Shown here: piece after piece, positions 2 to 6,185 of the stretch | How positions within the stretch are numbered: position 1 is the first letter of the stretch | Layout: every line of letters starts with the position of its first letter | Assembly (NCBI GenBank): GCA_963718235.1 | Contig: CAVQYR010000001.1 | Span: forward strand, 864,001-928,000 | Direction: 5' to 3' | DNA length: 64,000 nucleotides | Source of the DNA: an uncultured Actinomycetota bacterium | Lineage (GTDB): Bacteria; Actinomycetota; Actinomycetes; JAHEKZ01 | The notes under the pieces: model-generated | The model's input: only the letters and a program-made list of their open reading frames with translations | Told to the model about the DNA's origin: nothing | Database searches by the model: none | Program-made: the position numbers and the translations under genes

Positions 2-838
2 GAGGACGAGCCGCTGGGTACGGGTGGCGCGATCGGCAACGTGTCCGACCGGTTGGAGTCGCTGCCGGACGACCCGGTCGTCATCCTCAACGGAGACAAC
101 CTCTCCGGGCACGACCTCGCAGCGCAGCTCACCCGGCACCGCGACGCCGACGCCGACGTCACGCTGCACCTCGTCGAGGTGGAGGACGCTCGAGCCTTCG
201 GCTGTGTGCCGTGCGACGACGAGGGCCGGGTTCTTGCGTTCCTGGAGAAGATGCCCGAACCGGTGACCCGCTGGGTCAATGCCGGCTGCTACGTGTTCCG
301 CCGCTCGGTGGTCGACGCGATCCCTTCGGGGCGACCCGTCTCCGTCGAGCGTGAGACGTTTCCCGGGCTCCTGCAGTCGGGGGGCCGGGTCTTCGCTTGG
401 CAGGAGACGGCGTACTGGAGCGACGTCGGTACGCCGGCCGCCTATGTGCAGGCCTCGGCCGACCTGGTGCGCGGCGTCACCCCCTCGGCTGTGGCGGAGG
501 GCCGCACCGGCGAGTCGGTGGTCGACCCCCGTGCGCTTGTGGCCGCAGGCGCCGTCGTCGACGACGGCAGCGCGATCGGTCCCGGTGCGGTAGTCGACGG
601 GGACGCGGTGGTCCGCGGATCGGTGGTGATGGCCGGGGCCCGGATCGGAACCGCCGCGCACGTGGAGCGGTCGGCGGTGGGCGTCGGCGCCGAGGTGGGC
701 CCGGGAGTCGTGCTCGTGGACACGGTCGTGGGGGACCGCGCCCGAGTCGGAGTGGGCAACGAGCTTCGGGCCGGTGCCCGGGTGTGGCCGGGCGTGGAGC
801 TGGCCCCTACGTCGGTGCGGTTCTCCACCGACGTGTGA
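2..838 (+). CDS. NDP-sugar pyrophosphorylase / mannose-1-phosphate guanylyltransferase (5'-truncated by window)
   Basis: EPLGTGGAI, VILNGD, FLEK, VNAGCYVF and YWSDVGTP motifs, followed by a C-terminal hexapeptide left-handed beta-helix; frame is open from the window start. Confidence 0.9.
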   Translation, partial: EDEPLGTGGAIGNVSDRLESLPDDPVVILNGDNLSGHDLAAQLTRHRDADADVTLHLVEVEDARAFGCVPCDDEGRVLAFLEKMPEPVTRWVNAGCYVFRRSVVDAIPSGRPVSVERETFPGLLQSGGRVFAWQETAYWSDVGTPAAYVQASADLVRGVTPSAVAEGRTGESVVDPRALVAAGAVVDDGSAIGPGAVVDGDAVVRGSVVMAGARIGTAAHVERSAVGVGAEVGPGVVLVDTVVGDRARVGVGNELRAGARVWPGVELAPTSVRFSTDV

Positions 839-1779
839 GTACCGAGCGGGCGGGTTCCGACCCCGGTCGGCGGCGGGTGTGGCGACCCGGTCGCCCGGTC
901 GATGTCGCCGCGACCCTCGGCGTCCTGCGTCACGGCTCTTCGGACCCCGCCTATCGGGTCGTCGGTGCGGCGACGTGGTGGGCCACCAGAACCTCGGGAG
1001 AGCCCACGACGCTGAGCCTGCGGGTCGACGCGGTGGGCGCCGAGGTCGTCGCCGAGGCCTGGGGTGACACCGCGGAGGTCCTGCTCGACGAGCTGCCGTC
1101 GCTGCTGGGTGCCGACGACGACCCGAGCGGTTTCGTCGCGCACCACCCGGTCGTTCAGCGCGCATGCAGATCCCATCCGGGCTGGCGGCCGCCGACCACC
1201 GGCCGGGTCTTCGAGGCGCTGGCGCCGGCGGTGCTCGAGCAGAAGGTCACCGGCCGCGAGGCCAGTCGCTCCTGGCGTGCGCTGCTCACGACGTACGGGG
1301 ACCCGGCCCCTGGGCCCACACCGACGCCCATGCGCGTGCCGCCCACTCCGTCGAGCTGGGCAGCGATCCCCGAGTGGGAGTGGTACCGGGCTGGGGTCAC
1401 CCCACATCGCGCCCGTGCGCTGCGCCGGGCGGCGAACGTCGGAACCGCGATCGAGGCCACCCGTAGCGGTCCACCGGCGCAGGCCGAGGTGGTGCTGCGC
1501 AGCGTGCCCGGCGTCGGGGTGTGGACGTCGGCGGAGGTTCGCCAGCGGGCTTTCGGGGACCCGGACACGGTCAGCGTCGGTGACTTCCACCTCGCTCGTC
1601 AGGTGTGCTTCGCCCTGACTGGCGACCCCGGCGCACGCGGTGACGACGCGCGGATGCTCGAGCTGCTCGAGCCCTACCGTGGCCATCGTTACCGCGTGCA
1701 GCGGTTGCTGGAGCTGGCCGGCGTCAACGCCCCTCGTCGCGGCCCGCGGTACGCCCCGCCGGCTCATCGCCCGCACTGA
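835..1779 (+). CDS. HhH-GPD DNA-3-methyladenine glycosylase II (AlkA-like)
   Basis: AVLEQKVTG, LRSVPGVGVWT helix-hairpin-helix, GDPDTVSVGDFHL; GTG start overlaps the upstream stop (GTGA). Confidence 0.85.
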   Translation: MSTERAGSDPGRRRVWRPGRPVDVAATLGVLRHGSSDPAYRVVGAATWWATRTSGEPTTLSLRVDAVGAEVVAEAWGDTAEVLLDELPSLLGADDDPSGFVAHHPVVQRACRSHPGWRPPTTGRVFEALAPAVLEQKVTGREASRSWRALLTTYGDPAPGPTPTPMRVPPTPSSWAAIPEWEWYRAGVTPHRARALRRAANVGTAIEATRSGPPAQAEVVLRSVPGVGVWTSAEVRQRAFGDPDTVSVGDFHLARQVCFALTGDPGARGDDARMLELLEPYRGHRYRVQRLLELAGVNAPRRGPRYAPPAHRPH

Positions 1780-1804
1780 GCGGGTCGGCCGGACGTCACC
1801 GCCT

Positions 1805-3094
1805 TCACGGTGGCTCGTGCGCCCGTGGGTACACCTCGGGGGTGTGCGGGGGACTGCTGGGTCGCCGCTGGCCGCGGGGCCCGACGAAGTCGACCCGACC
1901 GTGGCTTCCGTGGGTGGGGTCGGCCGCTACGGCGCGCCAGCCGTGCTCGTGCACCACGCGGTGGTGGCGACCGCACAGGAGGATCCCGTTGGCGAGGTCG
2001 CTTCGCCCACCGTCGGTCCAGGCCCGCAGGTGGTGGGCCTCCGCCCAGGGTGCGGCGCACCCGGGAAACCGGCAGCCGCGGTCGCGGACCCACAGGGCCT
2101 GGCGCTGCGCAGAGGTGAACAGACGTTGGCTGCGCCCGAGGTCGAGGAGTCGGCCATCGGGGCCGAACACGACTCTGGTCACCGCTGCGTCGCAGGCCAG
2201 CCGGGCCAACGTCGGGGGCGGCACCGGCCCCCCGTCGAACCAGGTGGCCGGCCGCGCATCTGGGACGTCGGCCAGCGCCTCGGGGGTGCAGGTGACCACG
2301 ACCTGCGGTCGCACGCCGCCTGACACCGGGGTGCGTGCGTGTTCTAGGACGGTGCGCATGATGGCCAGGACTGCGTCGTACCGGCGCTGGGTGGCCGTGC
2401 GCGGGTCGTCGGCACTGTGCGGCTCCAGGTACGCGGACAGGGCGGCGTCGAGGACCGCGCCACCCTCGGGGTCGGCCAGCAGGTCGAGGCGGTACATGCC
2501 GTCGAGCGTCGACGCGAAGCTCGCCCGGCGGGCCTCGTGCTGACGCTCGTGGCTGCGCCGGCCGCGCTCGGGGTCGACGACGTCGCGCAGGTACGCAGCG
2601 GCAGCGCGCACCTTCCCGGCGTCGGCTGTTGCTGACAGGTCGACGAGGAGCGAAGCGGCCGTGCGCGCCGGGTCCGGGTCGAGGTCGCCCACACCGTGGC
2701 CGATCGCTCGGAACTGGCCAAAGGTGAGCCGACCCCCGGCCAGGGCAGCGGCCGCCGGAGCCAGGACGGCCTCGCCGTGGTGGGCCTGCCGGGCGAGTCG
2801 GACCCGCTCGGTGGCGTCACCACCCGCGAGACCGAGCCGGCTGCGCAGCCAGGAGCCGGTCGACCGGGCGCCGTCCAGCAGCTCCGCGTCCCCGGCTGTG
2901 TCGAAGTGGGCGACGGTCGCGGTGAACTGCGCCTCGAGCGCATCGATGGCACCACGCAGGTGCCGCAGGTGGTCGGCCCGCTGGTGAGCGGTCATACCAC
3001 GCACATCGGCCGCACCGAGCCGCCCGATGGCGACGCGCAGCTGTGCGATGTCATCGGGGACACTCTTCACGGCGAGTGCGGGAACCACCGACAC
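1805..3094 (-). CDS. DUF222 domain HNH endonuclease (13E12/Rv1128c-like family)
   Basis: RTATQRRYDA, RLACDA, RLFTSAQRQALWVRDRGCRFPGC, EAHH..W.DGG.SDLANGILLCGRHH; GGAGG RBS 4 nt before the GTG at 3094. Confidence 0.88.
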   Translation of the reverse strand: MSVVPALAVKSVPDDIAQLRVAIGRLGAADVRGMTAHQRADHLRHLRGAIDALEAQFTATVAHFDTAGDAELLDGARSTGSWLRSRLGLAGGDATERVRLARQAHHGEAVLAPAAAALAGGRLTFGQFRAIGHGVGDLDPDPARTAASLLVDLSATADAGKVRAAAAYLRDVVDPERGRRSHERQHEARRASFASTLDGMYRLDLLADPEGGAVLDAALSAYLEPHSADDPRTATQRRYDAVLAIMRTVLEHARTPVSGGVRPQVVVTCTPEALADVPDARPATWFDGGPVPPPTLARLACDAAVTRVVFGPDGRLLDLGRSQRLFTSAQRQALWVRDRGCRFPGCAAPWAEAHHLRAWTDGGRSDLANGILLCGRHHRVVHEHGWRAVAADPTHGSHGRVDFVGPRGQRRPSSPPHTPEVYPRAHEPP

Positions 3095-3130
3095 AGGACC
3101 TCCGGTTGGCGACGAGTTCGTGCAGAGGAG

Positions 3131-3288
3131 GTTGATCGCCCTCATCGCGTCGCACCCCCGGCGCGGTTCTGACCGCCGGTTCGCGTCGCACCCTTCGCGC
3201 CGGCAGATCCGGACGCCGCTTCTCGTTGGCCTGGCGCCCACCAGTTCAGCTGTCTGAACCAGTGGCTCGCCGGCCCCTCTCGATCAAC
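3131..3288 (-). ncRNA. Candidate structured RNA in the 5' leader of the DUF222-HNH gene
   Basis: Closing stem GUUGAUCG/CGAUCAAC, three internal hairpins (one with tandem G-U pairs that only form on the minus strand), and two copies of GGGUGCGACGCGA. Confidence 0.55.
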
Positions 3289-3294
3289 ACCGTC

Positions 3295-3316
3295 ACTCTA
3301 GGACGGGGGTCCGACA
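3295..3316 (-). promoter_or_regulatory. PafBC/RecA-NDp-type DNA-damage-inducible promoter
   Basis: Minus strand reads TGTCGG-ACCCCCGTCC-TAGAGT, an exact fit to TGTCGG-N10-TA-N3-T. Confidence 0.75.
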
Positions 3317-3871
3317 GTTTCGTCCGGTCCGTGCCCGAGCACCCGACGGATCTCGTCGACGAGCGCTCCGACCTCCACCGGAACGGTGGTGTCGACGTCG
3401 ACCACGGGTCCGAGACCCAGTGGCTCGGCGGAGCTGAAGCCACTGCTTCCACATCTGCTGCATAAGGCGGTCGAAGTGACCGGCATGTCGGAGCGGCGAC
3501 CGCTCGGCGTACCGCCTGCGCATCACCTCGTCGGGTGCCCGGCACCACAGCTCGACCATCCGTTCGCACCGCGCATCCCGAAGTCCGCGACTCACCACGG
3601 GACGCAGGTCAGTGGCCATCCAGCTGTCGATGACCGCGCCCTGCGGACAGTCGGCCAGGATCCGCCAGATGACCTCACCGGCGGCCCGACCCAGGCGGCG
3701 GGACTCGTCCTGGTCGGTGAAGCCCAACTCGTCGAGCAGTGTCTCCTTGACCGCATCCTTGGCCAGGAGGGGAAGTGCGAGCGCCGAGGCGAGCTGACCG
3801 GCCAGCGTCGACTTCCCACTTCCGGGGAGCCCGTTGACGAGGACGACGCAGCGGGCTGGGGTCAGCGCCAC
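3298..3871 (-). CDS. AAA_33-type P-loop kinase (frameshift near 3440)
   Basis: [14 protein letters not shown] Walker A and KDAVKETL; the C-terminus [15 protein letters not shown] lies in another frame. Confidence 0.75.
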
Positions 3872-5184
3872 AGCATGAACTCGTCGGCCACGCGGGACGG
3901 TCGGTCGGCCGCTGGTGCTGCCGGACGTCCGATAGCGACGGCCCCCATCGGCTGCCAGTCCCTGGGCAAGTCGAGCACCTCGCGCACGACGTCGGGGCAG
4001 AACAGGGTGGACGACACCCACGCCGAGCCGAGGCCCCGGGTGGCCAGCGACACCAGGAAGTTCTGCACCCCCGCCCCCATCGCGACGAGGAACATCGCCT
4101 GCTCGGCGTCGACCGTCGGTCGTCGGGGTAGGAGTGGGCCCCCTCCGCCACCAGGCAGGGCACGACGAGACAGGGGGCGTGCCGCAGCACGTCACCACGG
4201 GCCAGCCGACGGGTCGATCGACTCGCTCGGTGAATCCGTCGCTGCGTCAGGTCGGCCCGCCACTGCTCGGCCATGGCGTCGAGCAGGCGCGAACGGCGCG
4301 TCGGTGTCGTCGAGGACGACGAAGCGCCAAGGTGTGGTGTGGTGCGGGGCCGGTGCGGTGACGGCGTCGGCGACCGCTGCGACGATCGCCTCGCGCGTCG
4401 ACGGGCTCGTCGGTGAAAGTCCGTACGGTCCGTCGCGACCGGAGCACGTCGAACGTGCCGATCGGGAAGAGGTCCTCGTCGTGGGGTCGGACCAGTGCAG
4501 ATGCCCCGTCGGAAGCCCTGTCGGCGACGCCGTGGGTTTCGTTGGCGACGACGGTGCTCGCAGCCCGCGCACGACCGCGACCGGCAGCCCACGGGTCTTG
4601 CCCATGACGAGCTCCGCGGCGGCGGCGATCTCGTCGGCGACGGCGATCTCCGTGACCTCGAGGGTGTTGCCGTGTGTGTCGACGGTGCCCCGCAGGTCGT
4701 CGACGACCCGGACGCCGGCCGCACCGATCGCCACGTCGGTCTGCCCTGTCCGCCAGGGTCGGCCCATCGTGTCGGACACCAGAACGCCCACGGTGACGCC
4801 GAGCCGGTCGAACACCGCTGCGCGGATGCGCCGGGCTGACGCGTCGGGGTCCAGGGGCAGCAGCACGAGCGTGCCCGGCTCGGTGTTGCTCGCGTCGACG
4901 CCGGCTGCGGCCAGCACGAGACCGTGCCGGGTCGACACGATGCGCAGCGGACCCCGCCGGGCGACCAACCGCTCGCTCTCCGAGTCGATCACGGCGTCGC
5001 GGTCGGCGTCGTCGACGATGCCACGCACGACCCGGCCCTCGGCCTTGCTCACCACCTTGCTCGTGACGACCACGATGTCGCCGTCACGCAGGCCCGGGTA
5101 GCACAGGGCGATCCGAGCGGCCAGGTCGTCGCCCTCGCGGACCTCGCCGATCGCCTCGATCGCCACGACGTGGAACGACGTCAC
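3862..5184 (-). CDS. fbiB: Coenzyme F420-0:L-glutamate ligase with nitroreductase domain (several frameshifts at 4100-4560)
   Basis: [42 protein letters not shown]; fragments [19 protein letters not shown] and [24 protein letters not shown] in shifting frames. Confidence 0.88.
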
Positions 5185-6185
5185 GGTCGTTGCACCAGTG
5201 GTGCGGCGCGCAGCTCGAGGGCCAGGTCGACCGCGGCGCCGGCCAGCGCCGACGCTGCCGCCTCGTCGGTCATCAGCAGAGGGCGCCCGCGTTGAGCGAC
5301 ACCAGGAGGGGCGGGGACGGCGGCGTCGTCGTCGGAGACGAGCCAGCCGTCGAGCAGACCGTCGGCCGCGCGGGCGCCGTAGTGGACGGCGACCGCCGCG
5401 GCACTGGTCTCCACGCCGATCGCCCGCAGGCACGCATCGGCCATGCCGCGGACGGGTGCTCCGCCGATGATGGGTGACACCCCGACGACCGGCGCGCCGG
5501 TCCGTCGCAGTGCATCCCTGATCCCGGGCACGGCCATCAGCGGACCGATGCTCACGACCGGGTTGGACGGGGCGACCAGCACCATGTCGGCGGAGTCGAG
5601 GGCCTCGACCACCCCGGGGGCCGGGCGTGACTCCGCCGCCCCGAGGAACACGAACTCTCTCGCTTCGGGCTCGGCATGCAGCCGCACCCACCACTCCTGG
5701 AAGTGCACCGCGCGACGTCCACCCTCTTGGTCGTCGACGACCACGTGCGTCTCGATCGGGTCGTCGCTCATCGGCAGGAGGTGCACACCCGGCTCCCACC
5801 GTCGGCACAGAGCGGCGGTGATGTCGGAGAGCGGCCAGCCGGTGCGCAGGAGCTGGGTGCGCACGATGTGGGTGGCGAAGTCACGGTCTCCGAGGGTGAA
5901 CCAGTCGGGCGGGACGTCGTACGCCCGCAGCTCGTCGCGAAGGGTGAACGACTCGTCGGCCCGGCCCCACCCCTGTTCCTCGTGGATGCCTCCGCCGAGG
6001 GTGTACATGACCGTGTCGAGGTCGGGGCAGACCCGAAGCCCGAACAAGGTGATGTCGTCCGCGGTGTTCCCGATCACGGTGACGTCGGCACCCGCGGCCT
6101 CGTCGTGACGGGTCGAGAGATCGGCCAGCAGCCCGCGGAGGAACCGGGCCGCACCGATGCCGCCGGCGAGGACTGTGATCTGCAT
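5181..6185 (-). CDS. fbiA: 2-phospho-L-lactate transferase (CofD/FbiA)
   Basis: [52 protein letters not shown]. Confidence 0.95.

Follow-up and report, generated by a model that had tools for sequence, protein, structure and literature searches.

Promoters of the PafBC/RecA-NDp class share the consensus TGTCRgtg-N8-TAnnnT. The mRNAs of SOS-induced toxins of the tisB type have long structured 5' leaders. For transcript ends in high-GC Actinobacteria there is the concept of hairpin terminators lacking a U tract ('I-shaped' terminators), or 3'-end hairpins. Parts of one report place LexA peaks at six mycobacterial 13E12 genes and RecA_NDp in others (PMC3381160). Passages of a second report state that PafBC acts through RecA-NDp (PMC6789036), and in these parts the two sources describe a dual RecA-NDp and SOS control of mycobacterial 13E12 genes (PMC3381160, PMC6789036). 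A literature search for a leader RNA of such DUF222-HNH (13E12) genes found no description of one. Here we analyse the upstream region of a DUF222-HNH nuclease gene of an uncultured Actinomycetota bacterium (GTDB lineage Bacteria; Actinomycetota; Actinomycetes; JAHEKZ01; assembly GCA_963718235.1). The window, i.e. the whole stretch of DNA analysed, comprises 64,000 nucleotides (contig CAVQYR010000001.1, positions 864,001 to 928,000), and plain coordinates refer to it. A preliminary description, made from the letters alone, had seen in positions 3316 to 3095 of the minus strand a damage-type promoter and a structured, internally repeated RNA, perhaps an unrecognised partner of the nuclease. We propose that 3316-3092 (minus strand) comprises a promoter and a cis-acting leader of approximately 194 nt with a boundary hairpin, both belonging to the mRNA of a DNA-damage-inducible DUF222-HNH nuclease, and we rate the chances of this reading at about even.

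The minus strand at 3316-3295 is TGTCGG-N10-TAGAGT, as read directly from the sequence. Set against the consensus it reads TGTCGGAC-N8-TAGAGT and thus contains the motif of a PafBC/RecA-NDp-type DNA-damage promoter; its -10 hexamer overlaps the stop codon of the upstream open reading frame (ORF; TGA 3295-3293). Scanning both strands of the organism's own 3.17-Mb genome for TGTC[AG]-N10-11-TAnnnT gave only 30 matches. A plausible ORF lies within 260 nt downstream of 20 of the 30, by a rule for pairing motif and ORF that is crude. Repair or DUF222 genes make up 12 of these 20 motif-led ORFs, namely recA, uvrA, uvrB, a radA-like gene, an exonuclease-GIY-YIG gene, a PD-(D/E)XK nuclease gene, a SprT-like gene and five DUF222 genes. 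Examples of such promoter sites are C1:2232222, C1:1904231 and C1:1893809, and the motif-led recA carries a LAGLIDADG intein. The genome contains a lexA gene and two adjacent WYL-domain genes (C1:1777551-1778707), which are likely pafBC. Moreover, 47 homologous DUF222-HNH loci of the order with upstream sequence were compared, after removal of duplicates, of loci truncated by a contig start, of two distant paralogues and of distant hits from collection scans. In 46 of the 47, the motif nearest to the gene is either of the PafBC type (29) or an actinobacterial LexA box (17). By its letters, then, the promoter is of the PafBC/RecA-NDp class marking the repair regulon of this genome, and in this point the preliminary description is borne out.

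In 12 of the 20 promoter-ORF pairs the start codon lies 6-7 nt past the -10 hexamer, and most of the PafBC-type regulon thus appears leaderless. The same spacing is found for three PafBC-driven DUF222 paralogues of the genome, which likewise appear leaderless. Because of this spacing, we place the predicted transcription start of the nuclease gene at about 3288 (3287-3289, minus strand). Just downstream, at 3285-3280 of the minus strand, stands GATCGA, within the 5' arm of the helix that had been proposed to close the leader into one domain. Homologous leaders read GTTCGA or GGTCGA at this position, and two of them (L014 and L031) have a full GAAC-N4-GTTC LexA box there. Because of these matches, GATCGA is best read as a decayed SOS half-site, i.e. 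the degenerate right half of an actinobacterial LexA box.

Approximately 194 nt of untranslated leader are followed, on the minus strand, by the Shine-Dalgarno (SD) sequence GGAGG (3103-3099) and GTG at 3094. This start codon (3094-3092) is in frame with a GTG at 3241. Homologues have SD-led starts at the equivalent place and N-termini that resemble one another (V/M-F-x-P-..-L-P); in several of them, in-frame stops precede this start. In a contig of a related strain (X5; a single contig of depth 4.6, with 15 differences over 2988-3371), the in-frame TCA at 3172-3170 is changed to TGA. A family profile search of the six-frame translation of the leader found no similarity. The idea that the leader is a relic of a DUF222 gene, for which GCDA was compared with the conserved ACDA, was dropped upon this empty search. 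By comparison with homologues and strain, translation is shown to start at the SD-led GTG 3094 and the leader to be non-coding, as had been presumed in the preliminary description.

The sole robust RNA element shown in the leader is a hairpin near its 5' end. This 48-nt hairpin (3275-3228, minus strand) has 20 bp, the loop ACAG and two G.U pairs, 3261.3242 and 3260.3243, just as previously drawn. It begins 14 nt past the predicted start site and 18 nt past the upstream stop codon. Its pair probabilities are 0.9-0.99, and alone it folds at -33.5 kcal/mol. The 70 nt at 3292-3223 reach -37.2 kcal/mol with a z-score of -4.85, and none of 200 shuffles is as good. For the 200-nt leader, the minus strand gives -102.1 kcal/mol (z -3.38) and the plus strand a z-score of -0.01, hence the stability is strand-specific. 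This agrees with the earlier argument, made from the G.U pairs, that the minus strand is the RNA. The excess stability of the leader comes almost wholly from the 3275-3228 hairpin. In the X5 strain the leader has four changes in 200 nt (one in a bulge, one in a loop and two in hairpin pairs). G.U pair 3260.3243 becomes G-C, pair G3271-C3233 is broken, and the fold of the 5' domain is kept (-37.7 vs -37.8 kcal/mol). This lends mild support to selection on the hairpin, from one comparison only.

Hairpins of this kind are found after stop codons elsewhere in the genome. Counted per strand, 760 loci have a contiguous stem of at least 12 bp, and 72 of them lie 0-60 nt past a predicted same-strand stop, a zone that by our own estimate covers about 2% of strand space. 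None of these 72 has more than four T in its 8-nt tail, and in 64 the number is two or fewer. At a threshold of -40 kcal/mol, 70-nt windows qualify in 75 of 2045 cases after stops vs 13 of 2045 mid-gene. The hairpin at 3275-3228 is a strong stem-loop well within about 60 nt of a same-strand stop (18 nt past TGA 3295-3293). Given this position and the enrichment of such hairpins after stops, it is most likely a transcript-boundary element, which would serve both as the 3' hairpin of the upstream kinase-like gene and as the first element of the leader. As a U-less 3' hairpin of that gene it may shield the nuclease gene from read-through. Within the nuclease mRNA it may act as a 5'-proximal stabiliser or a partial attenuator. 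The remaining GC-rich leader would act in cis only, giving a potentially genotoxic nuclease an SD-dependent and partly occluded translation start, in contrast to the mostly leaderless appearance of the regulon.

Beyond the big hairpin, little of the fold once proposed is recovered. The words quoted earlier are all found where they had been placed on the minus strand, among them GUUGAUCG at 3288-3281 and CGAUCAAC at 3138-3131. These two had been thought to pair and so to close the leader into one domain. This claim is not supported, since the pairing probability of the helix is 0.00 and the 136 nt past the big hairpin (3227-3092) fold like shuffles (z -0.34; equalled or surpassed by 66 of 200 shuffles). 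Forcing the helix costs 7.4 kcal/mol (-91.4 vs -98.8). Two further hairpins had been described, one before each copy of an identical 13-mer. The first, GCGUCCGG-AUCUG-CCGGCGC at 3216-3197 (minus strand), is predicted with pair probabilities of 0.63-0.80 and alone reaches -10.0 kcal/mol. The second has a probability of 0.08 and is not confirmed.

The duplicated 13-mer itself is real. The sequence GGGTGCGACGCGA stands exactly at 3193-3181 and at 3157-3145 of the minus strand. The repeat extends to 20 nt with 85% identity at a spacing of 36, and the exact 13-mer has only these two copies, both in the leader, in the 3.17-Mb genome. In three relatives, searches allowing at most one mismatch found the 13-mer at control rates only. 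The 13-nt repeat is thus shown to be real but peculiar to this locus. When 30 nt of coding sequence were included in the folding, copy 1 (GGGUGCGACGCGA, 3181-3193, minus strand) was predicted to pair with 3083-3074 in the coding sequence, and copy 2 (GGGUGCGACGCGA, 3145-3157, minus strand) with 3114-3108 just upstream of the SD sequence, each with P ~0.8. A complementarity of 12 nt (92%) between the 13-mer region and the promoter was set aside, as about one such match is expected by chance according to our estimate.

The origin of the repeat may be seen in a second contig. Perfect 8-bp inverted repeats (3203-3196 and 3165-3158) enclose a 30-nt segment, 3195-3166, that contains 13-mer copy 1, so that 3158-3203 is a candidate small inversion. 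A contig of depth 2 (X6) matches 2996-3165 exactly and then continues with 13 letters that are the reverse complement of 3183-3195. Inverting the 30 nt between the inverted repeats would give exactly this contig end. In the flipped form the 13-mers are complementary and make a 13-bp stem, with a local energy of about -43 vs about -29 kcal/mol, values that are approximate as 31 nt were inverted in the computation. Most simply, judged from these letters, the 13-mers would be the arms of a second hairpin, one of which was flipped by a small inversion. Contigs designated X1 break at 3152 and 3166.

Several points weigh against the reading as a damage-inducible gene with a boundary hairpin and a cis-acting leader. 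At a threshold of -35 kcal/mol the contrast between windows after stops and mid-gene is weak (218 vs 148 of 2045), and the window of this hairpin, at -37.2 kcal/mol, falls between the two thresholds. The gene finder used for the after-stop counts is crude, having missed the upstream ORF itself. The hairpin tail AACGAGAAGC has no U run, and a terminator scan of 1500-4500 gave 0 terminators. A canonical intrinsic terminator was accordingly rejected, the GC-rich hairpin being present and the U tract missing. Furthermore, a real terminator at this place would stop the nuclease transcript, too. The transcription start, termination at the hairpin and regulation of any kind are predictions. Nor is the ribosome site unusually occluded in this leader, its accessibility being 0.33 compared with 0.35 in shuffled ones. 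We do not count occlusion as a property of this leader, and the trend in the family is mild (30 of 37 leaders lie under the mean accessibility of their own shuffles, 0.28 vs 0.36). Concerning the 13-mers, their flanks are diverged, with 9 of 23 positions identical by hand count, and identical 13-mers in diverged contexts could instead point to a trans factor that selects for them. For the inversion, the evidence consists of the 13 terminal letters of a single contig of depth 2, which could be a template-switch chimera, and the direct form is found in three other sources, i.e. the window, X5 and a further source, X7.

The foremost competing explanation grants the leader no dedicated function, and we give it an appreciable though clearly smaller chance. 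The hairpin would be the 3' hairpin or terminator of the upstream gene, the 136 nt behind it a neutral GC-rich spacer, and the repeat an accident of mutation, through duplication or through the flipping of an arm. This accords with the enrichment of strong hairpins after stop codons in the genome, with the shuffle-like folding of the rest of the leader, with a ribosome site as accessible as in shuffles and with the lack of homology to other leaders. Moreover, leaders of the family have no strand bias in stability. Among 37 homologous leaders the mean z-score is -0.71 for the sense and -0.64 for the antisense strand, with the sense strand stabler in 19 of 37. We therefore rejected these leaders as a generally structured class, given that the sense strand shows no excess. 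One point in favour of a function is length. Leaders of the subfamily measure 27-200 nt, this one being the longest, and 37 of 40 have at least 75 nt, while 12 of 20 regulon genes are apparently leaderless. Because the leaders of the subfamily are long in a mostly leaderless regulon, we suggest that there is a reason for keeping the leader. The X5 strain points in the same direction, with four differences in the 200-nt leader vs seven in the first 107 coding nt, although these numbers are small.

Much less probable than not, we find a dedicated cis-regulatory RNA, in which a factor acting in trans (a ligand or a protein, perhaps the nuclease itself) would bind the two 13-nt sites, each beside a hairpin, and so control translation or stability. 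In the whole genome the exact 13-mer has two occurrences only, in units that are otherwise diverged. Both copies are unchanged in the X5 strain, and both are predicted to pair with the flanks of the ribosome site. A further hint came from leaders of the sister genus, where the word CACGGCGA/GACGCGA is found on the sense strand only, with 21 matches in 17 of 40 leaders and 0 on the antisense strand; shuffled leaders yield 1.4 on average and 6 at most. The word was, however, derived post hoc from these same leaders, whose loci are related. With a matrix built without this locus, the leader scores 8.4 bits, which 199 of 1000 shuffles reach. The 13-mers were therefore rejected as members of this family word, to which no link is shown. 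The leaders L012-L063, mostly of the sister genus, form classes with shared blocks. In one class these are CACGGCGA/GACGCGA, AGGCGG...CTCACCGCC and a GTCGTCGAAAGG block before the start, and in L063 the word is the exact complement of 8 nt ending in the GTG start. Lineage-specific leader classes thus exist, and this leader is in none of them.

Searches for counterparts of the leader give no support to a structured RNA partner. The leader is single-copy in its own genome. A DNA search in 60 relatives gave no match; when it was relaxed, or when the 13-mer was sought as a pattern, the matches in relatives stayed at chance level; and nhmmer found no match of the leader among 39 homologous leaders. 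The closest orthologue (76% amino acid identity, same genus) is cut at the contig start, and scans of genome and metagenome collections found no other close relative. RNAalifold gave no consensus structure for eight sister-genus leaders (-1.74 kcal/mol, 5 pairs). An Rfam cmscan of 2800-3600 with E up to 10 returned two chance matches, both outside the leader, and in 20 homologous loci nothing reached the gathering score. The scan against Rfam that the preliminary description had called for has hereby been made, and no family matches the leader. With neither DNA match in 60 relatives nor any in 39 leaders, the conservation and covariation expected of an unrecognised structured RNA partner are absent from the homologous loci, an outcome that the preliminary description had itself named as refuting its idea. 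For the twin sites in particular, the low probability of the second hairpin and the control-rate occurrence of the 13-mer in three relatives count as well.

A more elaborate version is a decidedly long shot. Here the 30-nt segment would flip within the population and make the leader a switchable regulatory RNA, toggling translation or degradation of the nuclease mRNA, or the 13-mers would be sites of DUF222 autoregulation. If true, the flip would turn a direct repeat that pairs with the flanks of the ribosome site into a 13-bp hairpin.

Very unlikely, too, is a mobility signal, i.e. that the leader is the end of a mobile DUF222-HNH cassette whose hairpin or repeats are recognised as DNA. In the parts of the report that concern them, the mycobacterial 13E12 elements are called insertion elements (PMC3381160). 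Relatives differ in what lies between the fbiB-like and the alkA-like gene, and one contig of the same genus lacks both the nuclease and the kinase-like gene. Against mobility, leader, hairpin and 13-mer are single-copy and are not shared by the seven paralogues in the genome. Moreover, the promoter overlaps the upstream stop codon and so leaves no room for a shared element end.

The contig just mentioned (L066; G001:C77:1-3018), compared with 1524-5639 of the window, has both flanks, the alkA-like end and the fbiB-like gene. Between them are 1057 nt with a different ORF of 249 aa. Contig C33 of the same genome, G001, has the nuclease with the downstream flank. The nuclease locus is either a variable spot or represented by two strains in one bin. 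The upstream ORF (3293-4198, minus strand) has an AAA_33 kinase-like domain and ends inside the -10 hexamer. In an X1 contig, one base fewer at 3433 would move its stop to TAG 3300-3298. This TAG and TGA 3295-3293 both lie inside the -10 hexamer, and the missing base may reflect either variation between strains or an indel error of an assembly with two contigs. The fbiB-like ORF (4192-5808) has an F420 ligase domain and no nitroreductase domain. Relatives match residues 14-119 only of ORF 3293-4198, which is in another frame than the fbiB-like ORF and has its AAA_33 domain further on. In genome G005, ligase and nitroreductase domains are found in one ORF of 593 aa. Near 4195 there is a frameshift, a fusion or an assembly error. 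On the other side, the convergent ORF 397-1779 (plus strand) is weakly similar to DNA-3-methyladenine glycosylase 2 (NCBIfam E 3e-4, well short of the cut-off), and a repair-type gene may thus stand beside the damage-induced nuclease.

We hold it for highly improbable that the leader is a trans-acting RNA partner of the nuclease, be it a guide or scaffold like omega RNA or an antitoxin RNA. The nuclease gene (1805-3094, minus strand) encodes 429 aa from GTG 3094, and its domains were read from Pfam, the family alignment and matches to PDB structures. DUF222 is found as PF02720 (E 6.3e-33, 114.8 bits). The Pfam HNH match, with 19.6 bits, stays below the cut-off of 21.4. Nevertheless, the catalytic and zinc HNH motif is present, with C341, C346, H354, H355, N369, C374, H377, H378 and H382 invariant in 30 sequences and a profile match to the HNH domains of IscB and McrA. 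When a profile of 30 homologues was compared with solved structures, the HNH domain (residues 333-400) had its nearest sequence relatives in IscB HNH domains (E 4.4e-8), followed by McrA, a group II intron maturase and Cas8f-HNH. An AlphaFold model of the nuclease has a mean pLDDT of 80, and Foldseek found nothing for it at E <= 0.001. With VIA-align, the HNH part (residues 322-417) matches TagI, IscB and McrA with Z 7.5-8. The helical N-terminal part weakly resembles the DNA-binding domains of ParB, Spo0J and KorB with Z 5-7.4, a level common for helical models. This modelled N-terminal domain points weakly to DNA binding, if anything, and nothing in the protein points to an RNA-binding scaffold.

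The likeness to IscB (profile E 4.4e-8; Z 7.7 to an IscB chain) and a leader that lies upstream of the ORF as omega RNA does are what favours an RNA partner. The match to IscB covers the HNH domain only, though, with similar scores for TagI and McrA. Besides DUF222 and HNH, Pfam detects no domain in the nuclease, in particular no RuvC domain, which in an IscB-omega RNA system is split by the HNH domain. There is no match to HEARO or another Rfam family, the leader is unconserved among homologues, and three DUF222 paralogues of the same genome are apparently leaderless. An antisense RNA is hampered as well. The leader contains no TA dinucleotide, therefore no -10 element of the form TAnnnT is possible. 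PADLOC and NCBIfam gave nothing for the nuclease, and in the class, of which 401 genomes were sampled, the subfamily did not turn up outside the family of this organism.

Least credible of all is translation of the region from 3241 as an N-terminal extension of 49 residues: the frame is open from 3283 and the 13-mers, 36 nt and thus a multiple of three apart, both read GCDA, but GTG 3241 lacks an SD sequence and is part of the hairpin's 3' arm, homologues use the SD-led codon as their start, several of them behind stops, the related strain has TGA in this frame, and the translated leader is unlike the family profile.

We thus return to a promoter and a cis-acting leader with a boundary hairpin. 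On this reading, a PafBC-type damage regulon is laid out in a little-known actinomycete lineage as it is in mycobacteria. Within it, the DUF222-HNH genes of the subfamily keep SD-led leaders of 80-200 nt while most regulon genes appear leaderless, a difference which suggests that a potentially genotoxic enzyme may be kept in check at the post-transcriptional level as well. The locus also holds a caution, as DNA of 70% GC lets a plausible multi-helix fold be drawn almost anywhere. Only one hairpin survives the controls, and its position is that expected for the upstream gene's own 3' hairpin.

Compared with U-tract-less terminators of high-GC Actinobacteria, the hairpin here is likewise a long GC-rich stem-loop after a stop codon with no U tail. 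It differs from U-less 3'-end hairpins in that it lies downstream of a promoter and so is part of the leader of the next gene. With mRNAs of the tisB type the locus shares a damage-induced, potentially harmful product and a long leader able to occlude the ribosome site. It differs from them in having no antisense promoter, no evidence of processing and an occlusion no stronger than in shuffles. As in the IscB/omega RNA system, an HNH nuclease is encoded just downstream of a long non-coding stretch, and IscB HNH domains are its best solved relatives. Without a RuvC domain, a HEARO match or a conserved RNA among homologues, the nuclease gene is not a member of the IscB-omega RNA (HEARO) system. 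The closest counterpart are the mycobacterial 13E12 (REP13E12) genes, which belong to the same family (DUF222 with HNH), have the same type of promoter and display the same mix of RecA-NDp motifs with full or degenerate SOS boxes. Unlike them, the gene described here belongs to an uncultured actinomycete of freshwater sediment from a small order, and among the 401 genomes sampled from the class its subfamily is confined to its own family.

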